From: Candidatus Aminicenantes bacterium
GTDB lineage: Bacteria; Acidobacteriota; Aminicenantia; Aminicenantales; Saccharicenantaceae
Direction of reading: 5' to 3'
NCBI GenBank assembly: GCA_017999365.1
Contig: JAGNLW010000002.1
Coordinates: forward strand, 241,348-305,347
DNA length: 64,000 nt
Numbering within the stretch: position 1 is the stretch's first letter; every line of letters starts with the position of its first letter. The position numbers and the translations under genes are program-made. A model generated the notes under the pieces. That model did no database searches. It had not been told where the DNA came from and worked only from the letters and a program-made list of their open reading frames with translations. Below are positions 6,831 to 46,964 of the stretch, one piece after another.

Positions 6831-7346
6831 ATGGACCGCCCCCGCGCCCCCGAAGAAGCCGCCCCCTCCCCCGTCTGCCGCGCCTTCCTGCTCAAGTTCG
6901 GCCGGACCCCCGACCCGGCCCGGCGGCGGCGGATCCTGGCCGCCTGCATCAGGGCCGACAAGGCCTGGACCGAGGAGCTCCTCTGGGAATCCCTGGCCGA
7001 TCCCAACGAAGGCCTGCGGGACGCCGTCACCCGCGAGCTCTGCCGGCGCGGGACCCTGCGCCTCGAATGGGCCCTGCGGCGCCTGAGCCTGCCGCCCTGG
7101 TACGCCCGCAGCGCCGTGCTGGCCGTCATCGGGCGCCGCCGCATGCGCGAGGCGCTGGCGGGCGTCGGGGGAACGGTCGGGGACGCCAACGCCGACGTCC
7201 GCCGGGCGGCGGCCGAGGCCCTGGGCGAGATCGGCGGCGAGGAAGCCGTGCGCCTCCTCGTGCGGTTGAAGAAAGACGCCAATCCCTACGTCCGGGCGGC
7301 GGCGGAGGAAGCGATCGGCAAGACGAGCGGCGTGCGTTTCAGCTGA
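6831..7346 (+). CDS. HEAT-repeat (PBS-lyase-like) protein
   Basis: This is the in-frame tail of track ORF 6390..7346, starting at the ATG at 6831, 3 nt after the ribBA stop. Repeated units have the form D.N..VR.AAAEALGEIGGEEAV / DANPYVRAAAEEAIG. Confidence 0.6.
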   Translation: MDRPRAPEEAAPSPVCRAFLLKFGRTPDPARRRRILAACIRADKAWTEELLWESLADPNEGLRDAVTRELCRRGTLRLEWALRRLSLPPWYARSAVLAVIGRRRMREALAGVGGTVGDANADVRRAAAEALGEIGGEEAVRLLVRLKKDANPYVRAAAEEAIGKTSGVRFS

Positions 7347-7360
7347 CCGGCGTTCTATCA

Positions 7361-7696
7361 GATCTTCTCCCATTTCCGGGATTCCCTCTCGAGGCGGCGA
7401 GGGGATTGTTCTCGCAGATCCCCGTTGCTGGAGGAGGGGCGGCAGGGAGCGGAGCTTGCGAAGCGACCATCAGCAACGACCCGGAGCGACTCGAAGGGGC
7501 GTTGCTGGGAAATATCGTGAGAAAATGCTTTTCCGATATTTCGCAGGATCGGGACTACGGGGGCTCCGTCCCGATCCTGCCTGGTCCGCTCACCTGGGTT
7601 CGCTCCCCGTTCCCCGGGGGGCCGGGGAGCCAGAGGACATCCCCCGAGCGAAAGCCCGAGAGAGGGATTCCCCGGAATCTGGGGAAGAATCTTCTT
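7361..7696. repeat. Multi-hairpin intergenic element bounded by imperfect ~35-nt inverted repeats (MITE-like element, structured RNA or terminator array)
   Basis: The outer arms 7361-7394 and 7656-7696 are imperfectly complementary. The internal perfect stems are:
- 7401-06 with 7418-23
- 7423-30 with 7471-78 (7471-78 can alternatively pair with 7500-07)
- 7509-17 with 7534-42
- 7543-55 with 7568-80 (13 bp)
- 7602-09 with 7623-30. Confidence 0.4.
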
Positions 7697-7709
7697 CCGA
7701 ATAGTCCGG

Positions 7710-7892
7710 CTAAGAGGCGTAGCGGATATCCGAGCAAGCCTGGCAGCACATCGGGTTGGACGTGCAGTTGTCCTTGTGGTTGTAGGGCGCCACGGGCGGG
7801 GCCGTCGTGTGCTTGCAATGGCACAGGAGGGTCTCCTCGGGACGCCCCTTGAACAGGACGATGAGCTCAGGCGTCTTCCACGGCTTTTTCAT
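7710..7892 (-). CDS. Putative RiPP precursor peptide, 60 aa, six Cys
   Basis: Sequence: MKKPWKTPELIVLFKGRPEETLLCHCKHTTAPPVAPYNHKDNCTSNPMCCQACSDIRYAS. It has an ATG start, a GGAGGA Shine-Dalgarno about 9 nt upstream and its own promoter. It lies immediately downstream of radical-SAM/SPASM genes. Confidence 0.6.
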   Translation of the reverse strand: MKKPWKTPELIVLFKGRPEETLLCHCKHTTAPPVAPYNHKDNCTSNPMCCQACSDIRYAS

Positions 7893-7927
7893 GGCTCCAG
7901 ATCCTCCATAAACGCTTCCTTCTCAAT

Positions 7928-7956
7928 ATATTAGGCCGTTCGATCGGCCGTGTCAA
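7928..7956 (-). promoter_or_regulatory. Sigma-70-type promoter for the precursor peptide (TTGACA-N17-TAATAT)
   Basis: On the minus strand the -35 is at 7956-7951 and overlaps the upstream stop codon. The -10 is at 7933-7928. The 17-nt spacer contains the small palindrome GGCCG-N6-CGGCC (7935-7950). Confidence 0.5.
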
Positions 7957-9077
7957 CCGGATTTTAAGCCCTCCGCCCGGGCTTCGGCGACCCGGCAGAA
8001 CTCCTCGACCGGAAGGTCCAGCTGCCCCGTTTCCAGATAGGCGTGGGCCGGGCACCAGAGGCAGAGGTTCACGATCGGGCAGGCCCCGCACTTGTCCAGC
8101 CACTCCGCGCGGCCGGTCTCGCGGGCCAGGGCCCGGGGGAGAAATCGTGTCCAACCTTCGGACAGCCCGCCCTTCCTGAGGTCGTACAGGAAGTCGGGAT
8201 GGTGGAGGGACAGGCACGGGCGCATGAGGCCCTCCGGGCCGACGACGAAGCTGCGCTGCCCGACGCCGCAACGGAAGATGTGCCGGCAGATCTCGGCCGG
8301 CGCCTCGGCCTCGGGGCCGGGCAGGATCTCGCCGCAGGCCGCGGCCAGGGCGCCGAAGCGTTCGGGATCGGACCGCTCCAGCCGGGCCACCTCGCGGGGG
8401 CTGAGCCGCTCGGCCCGGATGAGGGCGTTGCGGGCCTCGTCGCGGTCGAACCGGAGGTGGAGCTGGGGATCGAACCGGTAGGGCTCCTTGGAATGGGCCC
8501 GGCAGAACTCGCCGATGGCGGCCATCTCGTGCTTGTTCGACCGCAGGGCCATGGCCTTGAGCCGGACCGTGACGCCGCCCGTGAGCAGTCGGTCGAGGCC
8601 GCGCCGGAAGGCCTCGAACGAGCCCGGCGCGCGGGTCACCCGCTCGTAGGTCTCGCGCGTCACGCCGTACACCGTGACCTCGACCTCGCGCGGCGGGTAC
8701 TTGCGGAAGAAGCGGACGTGCTCGTCGGTGACCAGGGCCGCGTTGGTGAAGAGCGACAGGACCAGGCCTTTGCTCAGGAGGGCCTGATAGACGTCGAAGA
8801 AGTCCTGGCGCAGGAGCGGCTCGCCGCCCGTGATCAGGCACCAGACCGCGCCGAGCGCGGTCGCCTCGGCCCCGATGCGGCCGATCTCGGCGGCCGAGAG
8901 CTCGCTCTTGCGGGCGGCCCGGTCGCCGGCCGGACGGGCGATGTAGCAGTGCCGGCAGTCGAAGTTGCAGCGCGCCGTGGCCTCGAGGTCGAAGCTGAAG
9001 ACGGCCCGGCCGGCCTCCATCTTGGACCACAGCCCGAACTCCGCGAGCGGGCGGCGGACGACGAAGCTCCCCGGCAT
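7953..9077 (-). CDS. Radical SAM/SPASM domain protein (paralogue 3)
   Basis: This is the tail of track ORF 7953..9482, starting at the ATG at 9077 (MPGSFVVRR...). It has the CNFDCRHC (CxxxCxxC) motif, GGEPLLR, and the SPASM-type CGACPIVNLCLWC. Only 1 nt separates it from the upstream gene. Confidence 0.85.
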   Translation of the reverse strand: MPGSFVVRRPLAEFGLWSKMEAGRAVFSFDLEATARCNFDCRHCYIARPAGDRAARKSELSAAEIGRIGAEATALGAVWCLITGGEPLLRQDFFDVYQALLSKGLVLSLFTNAALVTDEHVRFFRKYPPREVEVTVYGVTRETYERVTRAPGSFEAFRRGLDRLLTGGVTVRLKAMALRSNKHEMAAIGEFCRAHSKEPYRFDPQLHLRFDRDEARNALIRAERLSPREVARLERSDPERFGALAAACGEILPGPEAEAPAEICRHIFRCGVGQRSFVVGPEGLMRPCLSLHHPDFLYDLRKGGLSEGWTRFLPRALARETGRAEWLDKCGACPIVNLCLWCPAHAYLETGQLDLPVEEFCRVAEARAEGLKSG

Positions 9078-9078
9078 G

Positions 9079-9561
9079 TCAGGCCCTCCCCTCCCCGGCC
9101 CCGACGGCCCGCCGGACGCGGCGGACGAGCCGGGTGAAACCGGGACACCGCGACAGCCGGGCCGTGGCGGCGGCGAGGAGCGGCGGCGCGATGCGGAGGG
9201 CGCGGCCGCCGCGCTCGACGCCGACGACGAGGCCCAGCAGGGCCTCGCGGTCGAGAGCGCCGTCGGAGGCCAGGGCGTTGTCGCCCTTGACCAGGTAGCG
9301 GCCGGCCGCGGTCCCGACCACCCGGTGGAGGCGGACACCGCCGGTCGCCGCGTGGACGAAGGCGACGACGTCGCCCGTCCGCGGCCCGTCGTCCGCGAGC
9401 GGGGCGACGGTGACGACGTCCCCGTCCCGGACGGCGGGATACATGCTCGAGCCGCGGGCCTCGAACCGGAAGGGCTTGCCACGGCCGAGGACGTCCCGCA
9501 TCAGGCCGGCCAACGGATAGCCGTCCTCGAGCGCGGGGCGGGGGCGGGGCGACGGGTCCAT
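9079..9561 (-). CDS. S24/S26-family (signal-peptidase-I/LexA-like) Ser-Lys peptidase
   Basis: GSSMYPAVRDGDVV (Ser box) and YLVKGDN (Lys box) are present; 160 aa. Confidence 0.7.
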   Translation of the reverse strand: MDPSPRPRPALEDGYPLAGLMRDVLGRGKPFRFEARGSSMYPAVRDGDVVTVAPLADDGPRTGDVVAFVHAATGGVRLHRVVGTAAGRYLVKGDNALASDGALDREALLGLVVGVERGGRALRIAPPLLAAATARLSRCPGFTRLVRRVRRAVGAGEGRA

Positions 9562-9564
9562 AGC

Positions 9565-9870
9565 TCAGTCCTTGGCGACGATCATCCGCCGGTCGTAGAG
9601 CTCCTGCAGGAAGCCCACGACGTCGGAGGCGACCAGGCCGTCGGGCGCCTCGTATTCGGCCGTGAGCTCGCGGACGACCTCGGCCAGCGGCCGCGAGCCG
9701 TCGACGCGGTCCCAGACGGCCCGGGCCGTCTCGTTGAGAGTGAACAATTCGTCCTCGAGGTCCCCGATCCCCGAGGCCAGGGGCACGATGACGATCTCCC
9801 CCTCGATCTCCCGGACGACGACGTCCTCGGACGGCCCGTAGGTCTTGGCGAGATCGATCTTGTCGGTCAT
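9565..9870 (-). CDS. PqqD-family protein (RiPP recognition element-like)
   Basis: This is the tail of track ORF 9565..10992, starting at the ATG at 9870, which forms an ATGA overlap with the upstream stop. It is 101 aa: ...VVVREIEGEIVIVPL...LFTLNETARAVWDRVDGSRPLAEVVRELTAEYE..., a typical PqqD size and pattern. Confidence 0.8.
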   Translation of the reverse strand: MTDKIDLAKTYGPSEDVVVREIEGEIVIVPLASGIGDLEDELFTLNETARAVWDRVDGSRPLAEVVRELTAEYEAPDGLVASDVVGFLQELYDRRMIVAKD

Positions 9871-11042
9871 GGTCCGGTCCTCCTTTCCGTCCTCGATACG
9901 GGATCGCCGACGGTCCAGGCCTTCTCCCCCCGTTCGAGCAGGCCGGCGGCGACCGCCTGGGCGTGGGCCACGCCGCAGAAATATTCGACCGGCGTGTCCA
10001 GCGTGCCGTGCTCGGCCCAGGACTTCGCCGGGCACTGTTGGCAGAGCCCTTTGAGGAAGCACTTCGCGCACCGCGCCAGGTAGGCCGGGTCCGTCGCCCG
10101 GGCTTCGCGCAGGCGCGGCAGGAATTCCGTCACGGCCTCCCGGAGGGAGCCGCCGGACAGGTCGTAGACCGCGGCCGGATGGCGCAGGCCGAGGCAGAGC
10201 TGAAGCCGGCCGTAGGGATCGACCGCGGCCGAGCCGCCGGGGCCGTGGCAGGTGAAGAGCCGGTCGCCCGGCGGGCCGCCGGAGCGGGCCACGAACTCCC
10301 GCCATTCGCCGACGACGGCGTCGCCGCGGCGGCGGGCCAGGCGGACGAACTCGTCGGCGGTCGGGCGCAGGGCGGCGATGGCGGCGCTCTTGTCCCCGTC
10401 GCGGCGCGAGCGCAGGTCGAGGAGCGTGACGAGAGGGGGCGGGCCGGACTGCCCCGGCAGGCCGGCCGCCCAGGCCTCGAAGGCCTCGACCTCGCCGCGC
10501 GTCGGCGGCAGGACCGCGCCTTTGACGGCCACGGCCACGCCCGCGTCGAGCAGGCGCCCGAGACCTCTGCGGGCGGCCGCGAACGAGCCGCGGGCGCGGG
10601 TGACGGCCTCGCACGTCGCTTCCGTCATCCCGTAGACGGAGACCTCGACGGCCTCGAGCGGCGGCACCCGGGCCAGGAGCGCGGCCGTCTCGTCCGTGAC
10701 GAGCGCGGCGTTGGTGAACAGCATGATCCGCAGGCCGCGCCGGCGGGCGTGGAGGTAGATCTCGGCGAAGTCGTCGCGCAGGAGGGGCTCGCCGCCGGTG
10801 AAGCGGACGACGAGGCAGCCGAGCGCCGCGGCCTCGTCGAGCAAGGCCCGCCAGCGCGCCGCCGGCCACTCCCGCGAGCGGGCCTCGGCGTCCCCGGCCG
10901 GCCGGTTGACCGAGCAGTGGAGACAGTCGTTGTTGCACCGCTCCGTGAGCTCTATGTCGAGCCGTGTCAGCGCGGGCGCCTTGGCCGCCCACAGGCCGGA
11001 CCGGGCGGACGGGACCCGGCGGACGAACGCCTTCGCCGTCAC
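9867..11042 (-). CDS. Radical SAM/SPASM domain protein (paralogue 2)
   Basis: This is the tail of track ORF 9867..12302, starting at the GTG at 11042, which forms a GTGA overlap with the upstream stop. It has CNNDCLHC, GGEPLLRDDF and the SPASM-type CAKCFLKGLCQQC. It shares FTNAALVTDE with paralogue 3. Confidence 0.85.
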   Translation of the reverse strand: MTAKAFVRRVPSARSGLWAAKAPALTRLDIELTERCNNDCLHCSVNRPAGDAEARSREWPAARWRALLDEAAALGCLVVRFTGGEPLLRDDFAEIYLHARRRGLRIMLFTNAALVTDETAALLARVPPLEAVEVSVYGMTEATCEAVTRARGSFAAARRGLGRLLDAGVAVAVKGAVLPPTRGEVEAFEAWAAGLPGQSGPPPLVTLLDLRSRRDGDKSAAIAALRPTADEFVRLARRRGDAVVGEWREFVARSGGPPGDRLFTCHGPGGSAAVDPYGRLQLCLGLRHPAAVYDLSGGSLREAVTEFLPRLREARATDPAYLARCAKCFLKGLCQQCPAKSWAEHGTLDTPVEYFCGVAHAQAVAAGLLERGEKAWTVGDPVSRTERRTGP

Positions 11043-13015
11043 GGCCGCGCCTCCCCGGCCAGGAATTCGTCCAGGACGCCGGCGACGGCGCCGCCGCGGT
11101 CGAAGCTCAGCTCGTAGAACGGGACCTCGCGGACGATCTCGCCGGCCAGGTCGAGGGCCCGCTCCAGCCAATCGGCCGTGGTCAGCGGGCGGACGAGGCG
11201 GGGAAGGAAGCCGGCCAGGACGTCCCGGGTCCCCGGGAGCCGGTCGATCCGGTTCACCCGGGCCTGGCGCGGGAAGAAGACCGCCGCGACCGGCGCCGAG
11301 CCGGGCGAGACGCGGGGATCGTCGCCGTGGTTCCAGGTGCCGTGGACGCGCCAACCGCCCTCGCCGCGGCGGAGGGCGACCCGGTCGTCGCAGAGGACTT
11401 CGGCGCGGTCGCCGAGGAGCCCGACCAAGGTCGACTTCCCGGCTCCCGAAGCCCCCGCGAAAACGAGGCCCCGCCCGTCCACGGCGACGCCGGCGGCGTG
11501 CACGAACAGGCCGCCGAAAGCCGGCAGGGTCCGGGCCAGCACCAGCTGGTCCGAGGCCAGAAGGGCCAGGGAATCCAGCCCGCCGGCGCGGAAGGCCTCT
11601 TCGGACGGGTGGAAGATCCGGCCGCGGGTGTGCCCGTCGTCGAAGACCATGACCCGGCGGACCTCCCGGTCGTCCGGGCCCGGCGCGAGCATGAGGTAGA
11701 TCCACGAGCGGTCCCTGCGGTAGACGGCCCAGGGGGCGCGCCGGTAGACCTCGCGTCCGAGGTCCCGGCCCTCGAGGTCGGGCAGGGCGAAGTGGTGGCT
11801 CAGGACGACGTCGGCGGGCCCGCCGTCCGCGGGGGCCCGGAAGGCCGCGAACTTCGGGGCGAATGTCCCGTCCGTGATCGGCAGGTCGGACTCGACGTCG
11901 ACGGCCAGGCCGGCGATGCGGTAGCGCCGGCGGTGCCCGGCCGCCCAGGTCGTCCGGGCCCGGCGCGTCTCGCGGGCGATCTCGCACAGGGAGTCGATCT
12001 GGACCGAAGGATCGCGGTGCTCGAGCCAGGCGAAGACGGGGCACCACTTGCAGTCGGAGCGCAGCTCGCAGGCGCCGCAGCCCTCGCGGTAGGCCGGCGA
12101 CGGCGCGGCCGCGGCGGCCAGGGCCGGCAGTCGGTCCTCCCAGGCCTCGGCCAGCGGCGTCGTCCGCAGGTCGACGCGGAGCGCGGGGTCCTTGACGAAG
12201 GAGCAGAAGCTCAGCCCGCCGTACGGATCGACGTGGAAGTCGCGGCGGCCGGCCAGGCACGCGGCATAGAGCCCGGCGTCCGGCGCGGCGGCCGCGGCGC
12301 AATCGGCGTCGAAGCTTCCCTCGGGACCGCCGCCGCGGGCCGGGTCGAGCCCGACGACCTCGGCCGGCGAGAGTCGTTCGGCCGCGATCTCGCGGTCCTT
12401 GACCGCGTCTCCGGATGCGGAGAGATAGAGCCAGGTGGCTCCGATCCGCCAGCTCCGGCTCCAGGATCCGGCCAGCCGGACCATGGCCCCGTACTCGGGA
12501 AAATTCGTCCGCATGGGTACGACCTGGACGGTGAACGGGGTCCCGGCCTCGCGGAGACAGGCGACGCCTCTCGTCAGGGCCTCGAACGAGCCGGGGTTCC
12601 GGGTCACGGCGTCGTGGACGGCGGCGGTCGCGCCGTAGAGGGCGACGAGCAGGGTGCCCGGCCGCCGCAGCAGCCGGGCGATCGCCGGCGTGATCAGGCC
12701 GCCGTTGGTGTTCAGCGTGTACCAGACCGCGCGCTCCGTCAGGGCCTCGAAGATCTCAAGGAAGTCGGGCCGCAGCAGGGGCTCCCCGCCCGAGATGGCC
12801 CATTCGCGGCAGCCCAGGGCCCGGGCCTCGGCGGCGATACGGCGGATCTCCTCCGCCGTGAGCTCGGCGGCCCGTTCGGGGGCCCCGGGCGGCAGGCGCA
12901 GCCAGCAGTGGCGGCAGTCGTTCGCGCAGCGGTAGGTCAGGTCGATCGTCCCGCGCAGGGGCAGGCGCGGCAGGCTCTCGACCTTCTTCCGGGCGACGAA
13001 ACGGCTCATCGACAT
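11039..13015 (-). CDS. Fusion protein: radical SAM/SPASM domain (paralogue 1) + HPr-kinase-like P-loop domain
   Basis: The N-terminal part has CANDCRHC, GGEPLLRPDF and the SPASM-type CGACELRSDCKWC. The C-terminal ~280 aa contains GLVFAGASGAGKSTLVGLLGDRAEVLCDDRV, matching the HprK C-terminal pattern G.SG.GKS...L......L..DD.V. Confidence 0.8.
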   Translation of the reverse strand: MSMSRFVARKKVESLPRLPLRGTIDLTYRCANDCRHCWLRLPPGAPERAAELTAEEIRRIAAEARALGCREWAISGGEPLLRPDFLEIFEALTERAVWYTLNTNGGLITPAIARLLRRPGTLLVALYGATAAVHDAVTRNPGSFEALTRGVACLREAGTPFTVQVVPMRTNFPEYGAMVRLAGSWSRSWRIGATWLYLSASGDAVKDREIAAERLSPAEVVGLDPARGGGPEGSFDADCAAAAAPDAGLYAACLAGRRDFHVDPYGGLSFCSFVKDPALRVDLRTTPLAEAWEDRLPALAAAAAPSPAYREGCGACELRSDCKWCPVFAWLEHRDPSVQIDSLCEIARETRRARTTWAAGHRRRYRIAGLAVDVESDLPITDGTFAPKFAAFRAPADGGPADVVLSHHFALPDLEGRDLGREVYRRAPWAVYRRDRSWIYLMLAPGPDDREVRRVMVFDDGHTRGRIFHPSEEAFRAGGLDSLALLASDQLVLARTLPAFGGLFVHAAGVAVDGRGLVFAGASGAGKSTLVGLLGDRAEVLCDDRVALRRGEGGWRVHGTWNHGDDPRVSPGSAPVAAVFFPRQARVNRIDRLPGTRDVLAGFLPRLVRPLTTADWLERALDLAGEIVREVPFYELSFDRGGAVAGVLDEFLAGEARP

Positions 13016-13169
13016 AGTCCTCGTGTCCGGGGCAGACCCGTGCTCGCACGGGTACCCGTCCCCACTTTAGGGGGCCTGGATGCGTCCCGGCATGGCCGGG
13101 GCCGGGGAATCGGGGGATGATTTTCGGGAGCCCCGCCTCCCCTCGGGGGGTGAGACGGCGCGGCGGTCC

Positions 13170-13640
13170 TCACCCCTCGTCCGGACCGCCGGCGGCCTCC
13201 CGGCGCGAGTCGAGGATGAAGGTCACCGGGCCGTCGTTGACGATGTGGACGTCCATCGCGGCCCGGAAGACGCCCGTCTCGACCCGGGGACCGAGGGCCC
13301 GGAGGGCGGCCACGAAGGCCTCGAAGAGCTCGGCGGCGCGGCCGGGCTCCTCGGCGTCGTCGAAGCTCGGCCGGCGGCCTTTGCGGACCGAGCCGGCCAG
13401 GGTGAACTGGGAGACGGCCAGCGCCCCGCCCCCGGTCTCGAGCAGGGACAGGTTCATCTTGCCGGCCGCGTCGGGGAAGACGCGCAGTTCGGCGCACTTG
13501 CGGGCCAGACGGGCCGCGTCCGCCTCGCCGTCCCCCCGCTCGACGCCGACGAGCAGGCAGAGGCCCGGCCCGACGCGCCCGGCCGTCCGGCCGTCGACTT
13601 CGACGCGGGCGTCCTTGACCCGCTGGAGAACGATCCTCAT
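13170..13640 (-). CDS. dtd: D-aminoacyl-tRNA deacylase
   Basis: This is the tail of track ORF 13170..14141, starting at the ATG at 13640, which forms an ATGA overlap with the murJ stop. Motifs MRIVLQRV, SQFTLAG and NDGPVTF are present. Confidence 0.9.
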   Translation of the reverse strand: MRIVLQRVKDARVEVDGRTAGRVGPGLCLLVGVERGDGEADAARLARKCAELRVFPDAAGKMNLSLLETGGGALAVSQFTLAGSVRKGRRPSFDDAEEPGRAAELFEAFVAALRALGPRVETGVFRAAMDVHIVNDGPVTFILDSRREAAGGPDEG

Positions 13641-41356: not shown

Positions 41357-43360
41357 ATGAAAACCACGCGAGATGAGTCTGAAGCGAAACTGCTTAAGTT
41401 GAGCTACTTCTTATATGCCGGGTTGCTCCTCACGGAATTGGCCGTCAAGGCTCTGGCGGTATACGGGATGTTTTCCGGTCACAAGGTGACATCCTCTATC
41501 GTTTCCAGGGCTGGCACCGGCTTATGGATGCTCATTTCACATCTCGTCCTTTATGCTATCAAGGTGTCCGCGATATATTTCGTTTTTGCCGTTCTTAACG
41601 CTCATTTCGTCCTCTCACTTGCTCGCTGGCTCTCCCAAAGAAAGCCACACTGGGGACCGTTCAAGGATATCTTGGCTTTTTTATCGGTCCACCTATCGTT
41701 CTTAGCCATCGTCTACGCCATTAATGCCTATTACTATCCTACTTCCGCATTAGCCTCCGGCATACCCGGATTCATCAAAGAAGGAACGGGACACACCGCA
41801 ATCGGCACGGTCCTCATGGGAATGTTAGCGTTCTATGCGGTGGTGTTCATCCTTTTTCTTCTGAATCTTCGCCGCAAAATATTGGCTTGGGCGGCGATTT
41901 CGCTGGTTGCGCTCCTGTTCCTGGCATCCCTCGATCCCGTGCACCTGGCCAAGGGGTTGTTCCCCCGTCCGGCAGCGAACCGTAACACAGGCCCCAACGT
42001 CGTCTTCATCGGCCTGGACTCGTTAAACCCCCTCCATACCGGATATTCGGGATATCCGTTGCCGATCAGCCCGAATCTGGATGCATTCCTTGAGAAAAGT
42101 CTGTACTTCAAGAACGCATACACACCGATCGCAAGGACTTTTCCGGCCTGGTACTCGATCTTGACCGGGCAGTATCCGAAGTCCTCGGGAGTCCGCCTCA
42201 ATCTCATGAAAAGGAAGTATATTAGATCCAAGGACCAATGCTTGGGTCACGCCCTCGGCCGCGAAGGCTATAAGACGCTTCATTTCACGGACGAGGTCCG
42301 GTTCAGCAACATAACGGCCGAAGACGGTTTCGACCATCTGGCCCATCCTCCGATGGGGATCTTGGATTTCGTCTTCGGGAGCATTCACGATTTCAGTCTC
42401 ACGAACGTTTTCTTCAACAACCCCCTCGGCTACGGCATCTTCCCTTTTCTTAAGAACAACCGGGCGGTATCCCATCTTTATGACGGGCGCTATTTTATGA
42501 ACTCGATCGAGGACACGATCGCGGCGCTAAAAAATGAGGAGAATTTCTTTCTGACGGTACACCTCTGCCTCGCCCACTGGCCCTATTTTCATGCGTCCCC
42601 ACACACCTTCGACCCCGTTCCCGGGACGGACCCCCAGATGTCCTTTTATGATTCCGCGGTATTCAAGGTCGATCAACAATTGGGCCGCATTCTGGGAGCC
42701 CTGCATCGCCATGGACTCTATGACAATTCGATCATCGTCGTGCTTTCAGACCACGGGGAATCCGTCGAGGGACATGGCTCGGATCTCAAGGAATCGGAGC
42801 AAAACCGGACGCTCCTGGCCTGGAAACCGACCGAGAACCTGCCGCATCGGGAGATCGACACTCTGGTCCGGACTATCGATATCGCGCCAACCGTCATGGA
42901 TTCGCTTGGATTGCCTCTGGACGGAATGAATTATGACGGCGCGAGCCTGCGCCCCCTTTTTACGACATCGGCTCAGTCGGAAGAAGCTCGGGATGAATCC
43001 GTGTTCATGGAGACGGAATTCTCGTTGGATACCCCGGGAGGGATCGGGCTTGCGGTACAATCCATGATCGAACAAGGGATAGATTTCTATGAATTCGATA
43101 AAACAGGCCTAATCACCGTTCGCGATGAATATCACGACATACTCATCCGGCGTCGGAACCGGGCCTTCCTGACGCCGGAATGGAAGCTGATCGCAGAAGT
43201 CCTTGTTCGGGGAGAAAAGGAGCGATTCCATTTTTCTCTATTCGACATCCGGAAGGACCCATCTTGCACGCATGATGTCGCCGACGAACACCCCGATATA
43301 TATAGCTATTTTTCCAATCGTATGCGCTCCTATTATGGACCTGAGATTGCCGGCAAGTAG
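41357..43360 (+). CDS. Membrane-anchored sulfatase/alkaline-phosphatase-superfamily protein
   Basis: The N-terminal ~190 aa is multi-TM. The sulfatase-type domain follows (VVFIGLDSLNPLHTGYSGYP, VVLSDHGES). G+C is visibly lower than in the flanks. Confidence 0.8.
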   Translation: MKTTRDESEAKLLKLSYFLYAGLLLTELAVKALAVYGMFSGHKVTSSIVSRAGTGLWMLISHLVLYAIKVSAIYFVFAVLNAHFVLSLARWLSQRKPHWGPFKDILAFLSVHLSFLAIVYAINAYYYPTSALASGIPGFIKEGTGHTAIGTVLMGMLAFYAVVFILFLLNLRRKILAWAAISLVALLFLASLDPVHLAKGLFPRPAANRNTGPNVVFIGLDSLNPLHTGYSGYPLPISPNLDAFLEKSLYFKNAYTPIARTFPAWYSILTGQYPKSSGVRLNLMKRKYIRSKDQCLGHALGREGYKTLHFTDEVRFSNITAEDGFDHLAHPPMGILDFVFGSIHDFSLTNVFFNNPLGYGIFPFLKNNRAVSHLYDGRYFMNSIEDTIAALKNEENFFLTVHLCLAHWPYFHASPHTFDPVPGTDPQMSFYDSAVFKVDQQLGRILGALHRHGLYDNSIIVVLSDHGESVEGHGSDLKESEQNRTLLAWKPTENLPHREIDTLVRTIDIAPTVMDSLGLPLDGMNYDGASLRPLFTTSAQSEEARDESVFMETEFSLDTPGGIGLAVQSMIEQGIDFYEFDKTGLITVRDEYHDILIRRRNRAFLTPEWKLIAEVLVRGEKERFHFSLFDIRKDPSCTHDVADEHPDIYSYFSNRMRSYYGPEIAGK

Positions 43361-43500: not shown

Positions 43501-44061
43501 TCAGCTGCCGGAGGCGCCAACGTTCGTGCGGGGACCGATGACCCAGTTCCCACCCCAGGCCACCAGGTCGTTGTCGAACGAGGTCATCCCTTGGACAGGG
43601 TAGAACCCGGCGGTAGGCGTCGCCGGATCATACACGAGCGTCCCGAGCGCCTGATCTCTTCCGGTCGAGGCGATGACGAAATCATCGACACCGAAGTCAT
43701 CGGTGGCAGCCGCACAATAGTCGCCCGGATCGTCGCCAAGCCAAACCCGATAGTGCCCGTTCCAGGGGTCATAGATGGGGATGGTCTTGACATAGAAGGA
43801 GCCGAGCTCGGTAGGAAAAGTACCCGCTCCCGTCGCCATTGCGGCACCGCCGGGATTCGCGATCCCCGTCCAATCACCGTGGTCGGTGATGTAGTCGGCG
43901 GCGGCCGTGGACATGGTCATGATCTCCTTCATGGCCGATTTCTGCTTGGCCTTCTGCATGGCGGCCAGAGCGTTCGGGATGAGGAGAGCGGCCAGGATGC
44001 CGATGATCGCGACGACGATCAGCAGCTCGATGAGGGTGAAGCCTCTCATCTTCTTGATCAT
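43501..44061 (-). CDS. pilA: Type IV major pilin / GspG-like pseudopilin
   Basis: Starts MIKKMRGFTLIELLIVVAIIGILAALLIP and also contains DPWNGHY. An AGGAGG Shine-Dalgarno precedes it, and it lies next to pilR/pilS. Confidence 0.8.
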   Translation of the reverse strand: MIKKMRGFTLIELLIVVAIIGILAALLIPNALAAMQKAKQKSAMKEIMTMSTAAADYITDHGDWTGIANPGGAAMATGAGTFPTELGSFYVKTIPIYDPWNGHYRVWLGDDPGDYCAAATDDFGVDDFVIASTGRDQALGTLVYDPATPTAGFYPVQGMTSFDNDLVAWGGNWVIGPRTNVGASGS

Positions 44062-44138
44062 TGAAAACCTCCTTTAAATTCCCTGGCTGATCTCCTCAGC
44101 CGGGTTATTTGCCACTCATAGTTGGCACCCCTATTATA

Positions 44139-44153
44139 GCAAGTTGCGTGCCA
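44139..44153 (-). promoter_or_regulatory. Sigma-54 (-24/-12) promoter of pilA
   Basis: The minus strand reads TGGCAC-GCAAC-TTGC, an exact match to the TGGCAC-N5-TTGC consensus. It lies ~78 nt upstream of the pilA ATG, and a sigma-54 activator gene (pilR) is adjacent. Confidence 0.72.
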
Positions 44154-44260
44154 ACTTCACAATCGTCTTATATCGTTGATATTAAACAATATATAAACAT
44201 TGTCGGATGGTCTGACGAAAAAAAGACGCCGCTTTTTGTCACTTTTGACACAAATTGTCG

Positions 44261-45676
<1,416 letters not shown>

Positions 45677-45680
45677 CGGT

Positions 45681-46964
45681 CTACCCCTGCGCCGCCGCCG
45701 GCCGGCGCCGCGGCAGCGTGATGACGACCTCGGTCCCCCGCTCCGGCCCCGATCGCAGGTCGATGCGGCCGTCGTAATCGTCGACGATCTTGCGGACGAT
45801 GGACAGGCCCAGCCCGCGGCCGTTGCCGAAGCCGGAATAGAAGGGCTCGAAGAGGTGCTCGCGGTCCTCCTCGGTCAGGCCCCGGCCCGTGTCGGCGACG
45901 ACGACGCGGACCTCCTTCCGGTTCGGCTGGAGGACGTCGAGGGTCAGGCGGCCGCCGTCGGGCATGGCCTTGAGCGCGTTCTTGATGAGGTTCCAGAAGA
46001 CCTGTTTGAACTGGCCGGCGTTGCCGACGAACGGGACGTCGGCCTCCCGGAAGTTGCCGCCGAGCTCGACACGGCCGTTGAGCTCGCCCCCGGCTTTAAG
46101 GACCTTGACCGTCTCGTCCATGAGGCGGCCGAGTTCGATGGGCGAGAAGACCTGCTTGGCCGGCAGGGCGAAATCGAGGAACTGCTCCAGGCTCTGGGAG
46201 ACCCGCTCCGATTCCTTGAGGACGATGCCCATGAGCTCCCCCTGCTCGGGGGTCAGGGCCAATTCCTTCTTCAGGACCTGGACGGAGCCGGAGATGGCGG
46301 CCAGAGGGTTGCGGATCTCGTGGGCCAGGCTGGCCGAGACGCGGCCGGCCTCGGCCAGGCGCTCGCGGACGAGGAGCTCCTTCTCGGCCGCCCGCAGGGC
46401 CTCGCGGGTCCGCCGCAGGCTGCCCGTGAGCCGGCTCATGAGGGCGGCGATGACGAAGAAGACGCCCCAGGCCACGAACATCTGGACCAGCATCGAGCCC
46501 AGGGGCGGCCGGACCGCGTGCTCGGGCCGGAAGCCGGGGATGAAGCCGAAATAGAGCCCGTCGGCCAGGACCCCGAAGAGGACGGCCGAGAGCGCGGCCG
46601 CCAGGTACCCGGCCCGCCCGGAGACGACCAGGCTCGCGGCGATGATCGGGAACAGGTACAGGAAGTACATCGACGAGCCCAGGCCGCCGGAGATGTAGAC
46701 GAAGGCGGTGATGAGCAGGAGGTCGAAGACGATCTGGAGGTAGGCCTGGGCGGCCAGACGCCGGCCGCCGGCGTAGAGAACGAAGAAGGCGGCCGCAAAA
46801 ACGTAGGCCCCGAGGATGAGGTAATAGAAGGGGAGGTTCGACGGCGCTTCGGGCGAGGACAGCTGGATGATGATGGCCGAGACGAGGAGCGAGGTCAGGA
46901 CGACGAGGCGGTAGACATTGTAGAAGAAGACGTGTCGCCGCTCGACCGTCACTTCCGGCTTCAT
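45681..46964 (-). CDS. pilS: Sensor histidine kinase (PilS-like)
   Basis: The N-terminal part is multi-TM. The H-box LAHEIRNPL and the G-box ADTGRGL are present. Confidence 0.8.
   Translation of the reverse strand: MKPEVTVERRHVFFYNVYRLVVLTSLLVSAIIIQLSSPEAPSNLPFYYLILGAYVFAAAFFVLYAGGRRLAAQAYLQIVFDLLLITAFVYISGGLGSSMYFLYLFPIIAASLVVSGRAGYLAAALSAVLFGVLADGLYFGFIPGFRPEHAVRPPLGSMLVQMFVAWGVFFVIAALMSRLTGSLRRTREALRAAEKELLVRERLAEAGRVSASLAHEIRNPLAAISGSVQVLKKELALTPEQGELMGIVLKESERVSQSLEQFLDFALPAKQVFSPIELGRLMDETVKVLKAGGELNGRVELGGNFREADVPFVGNAGQFKQVFWNLIKNALKAMPDGGRLTLDVLQPNRKEVRVVVADTGRGLTEEDREHLFEPFYSGFGNGRGLGLSIVRKIVDDYDGRIDLRSGPERGTEVVITLPRRRPAAAQG

Follow-up and report, generated by a model that had tools for sequence, protein, structure and literature searches.

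Six co-oriented and tightly coupled minus-strand genes at positions 7710-13015 of a 64,000-nucleotide stretch of DNA from a Candidatus Aminicenantes bacterium (this whole stretch is called the window, and coordinates refer to it) probably form a biosynthetic operon for a peptide that is synthesised ribosomally and modified post-translationally (RiPP), of an unnamed and uncharacterised family. In this cassette, a small Cys-rich peptide (P6) is linked to five partners, namely a fusion of a radical S-adenosylmethionine (SAM)/SPASM enzyme with a kinase-like domain (P1), two more radical SAM/SPASM enzymes (P2 and P5), a PqqD-family protein (P3), and a soluble S26 peptidase (P4), and the catalytic motifs are retained in all enzymes of the cassette. 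A reading of the window made earlier from the sequence only had seen a RiPP cassette without a fit to any named RiPP class. The RiPP reading is supported by the existence of a precursor family, by the linkage of peptide and enzymes, and by RiPP tailoring enzymes in related loci, and the lack of a named class by the fact that none of the cassette enzymes reaches a curated NCBIfam equivalog cut-off. The locus is not unique to its source genome but one member of a large, unnamed and experimentally uncharacterised RiPP family, of which the kinase-like component is already present in curated databases (Pfam ScmC).

The genes follow each other in the order P1 (11039-13015, 658 amino acids), P2 (9867-11042, 391 amino acids), P3 (9565-9870, 101 amino acids), P4 (9079-9561, 160 amino acids), P5 (7953-9077, 374 amino acids), and P6 (7710-7892, 60 amino acids), so that the third radical SAM enzyme, P5, is the neighbour of the peptide gene. 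Their close packing had been described before, and the junctions are indeed as described: P1 and P2 overlap in a GTGA at 11039-11042 in which the GTG start codon of P2 lies on the stop codon of P1, P2 and P3 overlap in an ATGA at 9867-9870, and gaps of only 3 nt and 1 nt separate P3 from P4 and P4 from P5, followed by a 60-nt spacer between P5 and P6. No hydrophobic segment was found in any of the six proteins, and there is no exporter, immunity gene or membrane protein within the Aminicenantes cassette, in agreement with the earlier statement that an exporter is absent.

The candidate precursor peptide

P6 (MKKPWKTPELIVLFKGRPEETLLCHCKHTTAPPVAPYNHKDNCTSNPMCCQACSDIRYAS) consists of a putative leader of about residues 1-25 (MKKPWKTPELIVLFKGRPEETLLCH, 7818-7892) and a putative core of about residues 26-60 (CKHTTAPPVAPYNHKDNCTSNPMCCQACSDIRYAS, 7710-7817 including the stop codon). 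Scans of the peptide with Pfam and NCBIfam gave no match. Judged from its sequence, P6 is translated, and the gene has a promoter of its own. This sigma-70-type element (TTGACA-17-TAATAT, 7928-7956, minus strand) is the sole sigma-70-like site in 7300-13300, where 0.1 would be expected by chance, and all 13 orthologous loci have kept it in front of the peptide gene. The open reading frame is under purifying selection: among 14 orthologues, there are 246 differences at third codon positions as compared to 81 at first and 59 at second positions, and 200 synonymous codon changes stand against 99 non-synonymous ones. The 17-nt spacer of the promoter (7928-7956) is filled by a GCCG-N5-6-CGGC dyad, which is kept in nearly all orthologous loci (L001-L014, L numbers denoting related loci here and below) despite differing centre bases, and which could be an operator for a repressor.

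A search with a profile of 20 peptides against 1.84 billion proteins gave a precursor family of 2,682 clusters (50% identity representatives) at E<=1e-3. Family members are 55-70 amino acids long, and their N-terminus is near-invariant (K-x-W-x-x-P-x-L-[IV]-[IV]-L-x-[RK]-G-x-P-E-E-x-[IV]-L-x-x-C-K). It is followed by a variable middle region, one more Cys, a CxxC, and a short C-terminal tail of a few residues. W5, P8, L10, L13, G16, P18, E19, E20, and L23 are invariant in the family alignment. P6 had been introduced as a six-Cys peptide of 60 residues, and the reading frame is real, selected and promoter-bearing, but of its six Cys only C26, C43, C50, and C53 are conserved family-wide, together with K27; most family members have four Cys, and C24 and C49 of P6 are lineage-specific extras. 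Also the last residue, S60, is invariant in the family alignment. Of 153 family peptides, 133 end in Ser, 19 in Thr, and one in another residue, and of the 90 distinct peptides from the loci described below, 89 end in Ser or Thr, the exception being a frameshift.

When P6 is compared with P0140, a peptide of a distant Aminicenantes locus, the leaders are about 75% and the cores about 34% identical (counted by eye). The whole peptides are 53% identical, with the enzymes at 59-63% and housekeeping proteins at 70-77%. Such a conserved leader with a diverging core is the usual pattern of RiPP precursors. In lasso precursors that are served by a split PqqD-like B1 protein, the leader carries a YxxPxL motif that is bound by B1 (PMC6784204), and the WxxPxL of the P6 leader sits where lasso leaders have this YxxPxL.

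The kinase-like domain of P1

P1 can be divided into an N-terminal radical SAM/SPASM module (residues 1-345, 11981-13015) and a C-terminal kinase-like P-loop module (residues 346-658, 11039-11980). Precomputed Pfam annotation assigns PF27840 'ScmC' to the latter and to all its homologues. With NCBIfam models, the C-terminal domain scores 41.9 bits for HprK_rel_B (TIGR04355, cut-off 200), 37.9 for ScmC (TIGR04249, cut-off 125), 24.1 for HprK_rel_A (TIGR04352, cut-off 200), and 17 for HPr(Ser) kinase, all of which is below the respective cut-off. The HprK-like kinase domain in cis that had been proposed for P1 is supported by structure prediction: the AlphaFold2 model of the domain has a mean predicted local distance difference test (pLDDT) score of 88.5, and Foldseek matches it to ATP-dependent phosphoenolpyruvate carboxykinase (PEPCK, E 1e-7) and then to HPr kinase/phosphorylase (HprK/P, E 2e-4 to 1e-3). 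PEPCK and HprK/P belong to one fold superfamily, and HprK/P enzymes are bifunctional kinase/phosphorylases. The predicted fold, the P-loop GxxGxGKS, a His, and an Asp-Asp pair together place the domain in this superfamily. H506, K527, D543, and D544 do not vary among 44-45 diverse members, and this invariance of the P-loop Lys, the His and the Asp-Asp metal site speaks for a catalytic function.

The only characterised RiPP enzymes of the superfamily are C-terminal-Ser kinases, namely PadeK, ThcoK, and PsmK, which phosphorylate the C-terminal Ser side chain of lasso precursors and require a His-Lys-Asp-Asp set (PMC9266682; PMC6993621). The four-residue motif of the P1 kinase domain equals this required set, as judged from the published motif. 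By analogy, the C-terminal Ser/Thr of the peptides may be regarded as the most telling feature of the system, as it would link the kinase-like domain to the paeninodin-type C-terminal-Ser kinases; it had escaped the sequence-only reading.

The PqqD-family protein and the peptidase

P3 matches the full PqqD model of Pfam (PF05402) with 59.2 bits (gathering score 23.4), and in the PDB it is matched in sequence by PqqD (3g2b) and by the lasso B1 chaperones 9x90_B, TbiB1, and TfuB1. With this score and these solved RiPP recognition element (RRE) relatives, P3 can be regarded as a likely PqqD-family peptide chaperone of the RRE type, just as first suggested.

P4 had been taken for an S24/S26 peptidase of the Ser-Lys type. 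The S26 family can be retained, but the catalytic type is rather the Ser-His type of Sec11 and archaeal signal peptidases. In a search of the PDB, a 12-sequence profile of P4 matched human SEC11C (E 3e-6) and SEC11A (E 9e-6), and the alignment pairs the SM.P (Ser), HRV (His) and KGDN..D boxes. G37, M40, P42, H79, R80, and D100 are invariant in P4 and its homologues, S39 is nearly so, and the assignment to the Sec11/archaeal type of S26 is based on the profile match together with these conserved motifs. Because the profile aligns the catalytic boxes of SEC11, P4 would be a Ser-His(-Asp) signal-peptidase fold of the endoplasmic reticulum/archaeal type without membrane anchor, and it is likely the leader peptidase of the system.

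The three radical SAM/SPASM enzymes

Three paralogous enzymes with a CxxxCxxC and a C-terminal CxxCx5CxxC had been recognised in the sequence, and this is well supported. The CxxxCxxC is present in all three modules (CANDCRHC, CNNDCLHC, CNFDCRHC; in P1, it is formed by C30, C34 and C37), and also GGEPLL and CxxCx5CxxC are common to them, with three further aligned Cys giving a total of seven SPASM Cys. In P1, these are C253, C271, C313, C316, C322, C325, and C344, which are invariant or nearly so in 45 homologues. The pairwise identity of the modules is 35-41.5% over 340-370 residues, with P2 being 35% identical to the N-terminal module of P1 and 41.5% identical to P5, as can be expected for true paralogues. 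The Radical_SAM model of Pfam scores above its cut-off for P1, P2, and P5 (65-76 bits, with 75.7 for the N-terminal module of P1).

The best NCBIfam scores of the three modules are about 60-110 bits and thus far from the cut-offs of 265-850, and the matches are scattered over MftC, AhbD, NirJ, ScmE/F, StsB, PqqE, and MoaA. MftC is the best match of P1, and for P2 the top match is StsB with about 80 bits, far under every cut-off. Solved relatives by sequence are PqqE, BlsE, MoaA, and SkfB, with PqqE as the best for P1. The AlphaFold2 model of the whole P1 has a pLDDT of 85, and its N-terminal half is matched by Foldseek to SkfB (top), PqqE, BlsE, SuiB, the anaerobic sulfatase-maturating enzyme anSME, MoaA, and CteB, with E values of 1e-11 to 1e-7.

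Occurrence of the cassette in genomes and metagenomes

P1 has more than 1,700 relatives, and the best 120 of them are all full-length fusions of 650-680 amino acids from Aminicenantes/Acidobacteriota assemblies. Whether the six-gene order recurs had been named as a check on the first reading, and it does: in a scan of one genome per species, the identical order was found in 14 genome loci, to which dozens of metagenome loci add, and one distant Desulfobacteraceae locus was found besides. The six genes and their chromosomal site, with holA-rpsT-murJ-dtd on one side of the cassette and ribBA on the other, are shared by 16 Aminicenantes/Acidobacteriota genomes, among them two more distant ones beyond the 14 scanned loci. 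Locus L001 is 90-98% identical to the window, and the divergence of the cassette enzymes keeps pace with that of the housekeeping neighbours. The fixed site and this co-divergence indicate vertical inheritance, and judged from these sequences the cassette is a core-genome trait in the Aminicenantes lineage. In one Aminicenantes metagenome-assembled genome (L006:11700-17968, on a 2.4-Mb scaffold), the cassette ends inside the peptidase gene, the third radical SAM gene and the peptide are missing, and genes for an Asp/Glu racemase, Lon protease and trigger factor come next, which is due either to a deletion or rearrangement or to a scaffolding mis-join.

In metagenomes, the pattern [IV][VI]LxRG[RK]PEE, derived from a 12-sequence alignment, found 272 relatives, and 80 of their loci were annotated with phmmer and hmmsearch. 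All 21 loci with at least 6.5 kb of flank on the enzyme side contain the kinase domain, radical SAM enzymes, PqqD, and the S26 peptidase, usually in the gene order of the window, and of the 61 loci flanked by at least 1.2 kb, 56 have a radical SAM or kinase gene. In most related loci, a P5-like radical SAM gene is found directly upstream of the peptide, but the peptide can also be placed first (L092, L102) or in the middle of the cluster (L079, L083, L020), and two to four divergent peptide copies occur in L078, L080, L098, and L103. The kinase domain is in all loci either fused to a radical SAM enzyme or encoded directly before one, with unfused examples in L015 and L103. Minimal loci (L016, L089, L090) consist of only a radical SAM-kinase fusion and one or two peptides. 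These minimal loci suggest that the radical SAM-kinase pair is the class-defining core, which may recognise the peptide alone, and where they lack PqqD and the peptidase they indicate that both are not strictly required. The family is mostly found in uncultured anaerobes, including Aminicenantes/Acidobacteriota, Desulfobacterota, Omnitrophota, WOR-1/3, Planctomycetota, Eremiobacterota, and a methanogen.

Related loci can also contain a peptide arginase, a LynF/TruF-like prenyltransferase together with a geranylgeranyl-reductase-like flavoprotein, an ABC exporter, HlyD/M50-like genes, and an uncharacterised PF14907 nucleotidyltransferase directly upstream of the kinase. Optional tailoring and export genes of this kind are typical of RiPP clusters. 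Two loci may serve as examples. L020 encodes, besides an Arg-rich peptide, a peptide arginase of the FlmR/OhkR family and, at L020:3585-4439, an S26-like peptidase with a long C-terminal extension and with Cys in place of the nucleophile Ser (GTCMYP). In a metagenome-assembled genome of a deltaproteobacterium (L103:8045-17268), the unfused cassette is accompanied by an extra short radical SAM/SPASM enzyme, the PF14907 nucleotidyltransferase, the LynF/TruF-like prenyltransferase, the geranylgeranyl-reductase-like flavoprotein, and two Thr-ending peptides.

Comparison with named systems

The nearest named system is SynChlorMet, in which ScmC is related to HprK, ScmD is homologous to PqqD, and ScmE and ScmF are paralogous radical SAM/SPASM enzymes, so that the set of domains is that of the cassette. 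The Pfam family of the P1 kinase half bears the name ScmC, and ScmE and ScmF are among the better NCBIfam matches of P1, P2, and P5. As all equivalog cut-offs are far out of reach, the cassette is related to SynChlorMet without being a member: apart from the ScmC score given above, P3 reaches only 22.1 bits with ScmD (TIGR04248, cut-off 100), and P1, P2, and P5 reach 58-81 bits with ScmE and ScmF (cut-off 400 each). Unlike SynChlorMet, the cassette has its kinase fused to a radical SAM enzyme, a third radical SAM enzyme, an S26 peptidase, and an identified precursor. More distant are the GeoRSP and HPr-rel-A/B systems. GeoRSP shares with the cassette the radical SAM/SPASM and PqqD superfamilies, and HPr-rel-A an HprK-related kinase with a PqqD-related protein, but the likeness to both that the sequence-only reading had pointed out does not extend to membership. 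The radical SAM enzymes score 39-52 bits against a cut-off of 400 with GeoRSP_rSAM (TIGR04303), P3 scores 24.2 against 100 with geo_PqqD_fam (TIGR04302), and the kinase domain is similarly far from both HprK_rel cut-offs.

With the lasso peptide systems of paeninodin and pseudomycoidin (PadeK, ThcoK, PsmK, B1), the cassette has in common a PqqD-like chaperone, a kinase, a C-terminal Ser, and the aromatic-xx-P-x-L motif of the leader. In the pseudomycoidin cluster, an uncharacterised NTP (nucleoside triphosphate) transferase, PsmN, occurs together with PsmK (PMC6993621), and in relatives of the cassette an uncharacterised nucleotidyltransferase is located beside the kinase. Unlike lasso systems, the cassette has a Cys-rich core, radical SAM/SPASM enzymes, and a leader peptidase of the S26 type. 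Neither a lasso cyclase (Asn-synthetase-like C protein) nor a B2 transglutaminase-type protease is encoded by the six genes or the flanking genes, which rules out a lasso peptide.

Sactipeptide and ranthipeptide systems (AlbA, SkfB, CteB/SCIFF, PapB, StsB) likewise have auxiliary-cluster radical SAM enzymes of the SPASM/Twitch type and Cys-rich precursors. Their recognition of the peptide is RRE-dependent, which by analogy may also hold for the cassette with its PqqD protein, and SkfB and StsB are top matches of P1 by Foldseek and of P2 by NCBIfam, respectively. In contrast to these systems, the RRE of the cassette is a separate PqqD protein and not an N-terminal domain, and the three paralogous maturases are accompanied by a kinase and an S26 peptidase. 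The scores are 83 bits for StsB (cut-off 625) and 39 for PapB (cut-off 340), and the AlbA cut-off is missed as well. Pyrroloquinoline quinone (PQQ) and mycofactocin biosynthesis (PqqE/PqqD, MftC/MftB) also depend on a radical SAM/SPASM enzyme, a PqqD-type chaperone and a small conserved peptide, but the precursor is unrelated, the downstream cofactor-processing genes are absent, and the scores are 73-87 bits for MftC (cut-off 265) and 45-64 for PqqE (cut-off 381). With the cut-offs missed, membership in SynChlorMet, GeoRSP, HPr-rel-A/B, PQQ, mycofactocin, PapB, StsB, or AlbA systems was rejected. An identity with anSME/sulfatase systems was rejected as none of the loci has a sulfatase gene linked to the cassette, and anSME is just one among many equal Foldseek neighbours of P1. 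Searches of the available literature library found no published description of the cassette system and no paper on SynChlorMet, and neither the paper on RRE-Finder nor the compendium paper on radical SAM RiPPs mentions kinases or S24/S26 peptidases.

Proposed mechanism and alternative explanations

In the probable pathway, P3 would bind the aromatic-xx-P-x-L motif of the leader in the fashion of lasso B1 proteins and RREs and hand the peptide to the enzymes. The three radical SAM/SPASM paralogues would each install a radical cross-link involving conserved Cys, most likely Cys-to-carbon thioethers of the sacti- or ranthipeptide type, the simplest assumption given that Cys are the residues conserved in the core. 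The HprK/PEPCK-fold domain would consume ATP and phosphorylate the C-terminal Ser or Thr on its side chain, as PadeK, ThcoK, and PsmK do, and the cytoplasmic Sec11-type Ser-His(-Asp) peptidase P4 would cut off the leader near the conserved ..L..CK junction. Cleavage is perhaps at ..L-x-x-C/K, where mostly small residues are found at -1 and -3, but confidence in this position is low. Given the fixed housekeeping site and the lack of an exporter, the product may act inside the cells of Aminicenantes or exit by an unlinked route.

Several observations weigh against this scheme. The SPASM model (PF13186) is matched in full but with only 15-18 bits (gathering score 21.5), and P4 scores 22.9 bits with Peptidase_S24, just below the gathering score of 23.3, its single-sequence NCBIfam scores being slightly below the cut-offs as well. 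By sequence, the kinase domain resembles HprK weakly (17-42 bits, and E = 0.014 in the PDB). Radical SAM genes and Cys do not correspond in number: peptides with four Cys occur in minimal loci that have one fusion, and peptides with three Cys in a locus with three to four radical SAM enzymes. PqqD and the peptidase are absent nearby in the minimal loci L016 and L089. By Foldseek and NCBIfam, the radical SAM enzymes are about equally near to thioether-forming, C-C-forming, epimerase-type, and non-RiPP SPASM enzymes, and with matches that spread over so many enzyme types the clade is not tied to one chemistry.

An alternative that is unlikely but deserves consideration is that the same RiPP cassette produces a conserved endogenous molecule and not a secreted antimicrobial. 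The product could be a peptide-derived redox cofactor similar to PQQ or mycofactocin, or a metal-binding or signalling peptide, made with C-C or other non-thioether links by the radical SAM enzymes, and with phospho-Ser as a handle or intermediate. It would fit to this alternative that the cassette occupies a core-genome site between dtd and the riboflavin genes without exporter, immunity gene or membrane protein, that the peptide is the most conserved gene of the cassette among closer genomes (83-97% as compared to 57-85% for the enzymes), and that a mycofactocin maturase is the best NCBIfam match of P1 and PqqE is near to P1 and P2 by sequence, although both matches are weak. At greater distance, however, the core outpaces the enzymes in divergence, as seen in its about 34% identity between the window and P0140. 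Elsewhere, loci contain multiple divergent peptide copies (L098, L078, L103), and exporters and optional tailoring enzymes are the pattern of secondary-metabolite RiPPs rather than of cofactors. A linked partner oxidoreductase is absent. It is quite improbable that the kinase-like domain is not the final decorator of the C-terminal Ser/Thr but activates the residue for elimination or C-terminal processing, or that it is a module with which the first radical SAM enzyme binds the peptide, either without catalysis or in an ATP-dependent way. The close association of kinase and radical SAM enzyme in all loci, the minimal loci in which this pair is alone with the peptide without PqqD, and the bifunctionality of HprK/P enzymes would all be compatible with such a role, but the P-loop Lys, the Asp-Asp pair and the His are invariant in the 44-45 diverse members, and the characterised RiPP enzymes of the superfamily are C-terminal-Ser kinases only.

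That the cassette is not a RiPP system at all is hardly to be expected. The radical SAM/SPASM enzymes would then be protein maturases similar to anSME or cofactor- or heme-type enzymes, and the small reading frame would be incidental. AhbD, NirJ, and MoaA indeed match as strongly in NCBIfam as the RiPP maturases do, anSME and MoaA are among the Foldseek neighbours, and the window contains a sulfatase-superfamily gene (41357-43360). This gene was, however, judged to be unrelated to the cassette: it is 28 kb distant in a patch of low GC content, the C/S-x-P-x-R motif was not seen in it by eye, and, as mentioned, a cassette-linked sulfatase is absent in all related loci. P6, in contrast to an incidental reading frame, evolves under purifying selection from a conserved promoter of its own, the peptide is found beside the enzymes in related loci (21 of 21 with enough flank), and PqqD and a leader-like N-terminus are hallmarks of RiPPs. 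The RiPP operon with radical cross-links and a phosphorylated C-terminus is thus the preferred reading. A possible but doubtful extension of it would be a new and widespread RiPP class, defined by a paired or fused radical SAM/SPASM enzyme and HprK-like kinase, a WxxPxL...PEE..L..CK leader and an obligatory C-terminal Ser/Thr, in which phospho-Ser/Thr and radical cross-links would make up a scaffold not seen before, and which in Aminicenantes, as part of the core genome, would have a physiological and not an antibiotic role.

Other features of the window

Between ribBA and P6, a 168-residue HEAT-repeat protein is encoded on the plus strand (6840-7346), convergent with the cassette, and it appears to belong to the riboflavin-operon side. 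Judged by gap size only, the space between P6 and ribBA is about 530-670 nt in L001 and L003, which leaves room for a HEAT-repeat gene, and about 140 nt in L021 and L022, which is too short for it. The sulfatase-superfamily gene at 41357-43360 (plus strand) codes for a membrane protein of 667 residues that resembles phosphoglycerol/phosphoethanolamine transferases. It lies in the sole low-GC patch of the window (55% as compared to about 70%) and may therefore be horizontally acquired. On the minus strand at 43501-46964, a gene for a type IV pilin-like protein, which has a methylation motif at its N-terminus, is followed by genes of a sigma-54-dependent response regulator and a membrane histidine kinase, an arrangement that resembles PilS/PilR. 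Scans of the 64-kb window for tRNAs and for Rfam families (at gathering score) gave no hits, including for an FMN riboswitch near the rib genes.

Implications

If the proposal is true, it adds a large RiPP family with thousands of precursors, mostly from uncultured anaerobic lineages, and it offers a candidate substrate class for the long-orphaned cassettes of the ScmC/SynChlorMet type. It also offers a testable rule, according to which the C-terminal Ser/Thr is the target of the kinase. The presumed role of P4 would mean that a Sec11-type signal-peptidase fold has been recruited as a soluble leader peptidase, and three radical SAM/SPASM paralogues that would act on one small substrate are useful for studying the division of labour among radical enzymes in RiPP biosynthesis. 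The main interest lies in the obligatory C-terminal Ser/Thr, the fusion of radical SAM enzyme and kinase, the Sec11-type peptidase, and the fixation of the cassette in the core genome of Aminicenantes, which raises the question as to the cellular role of the peptide in these bacteria.

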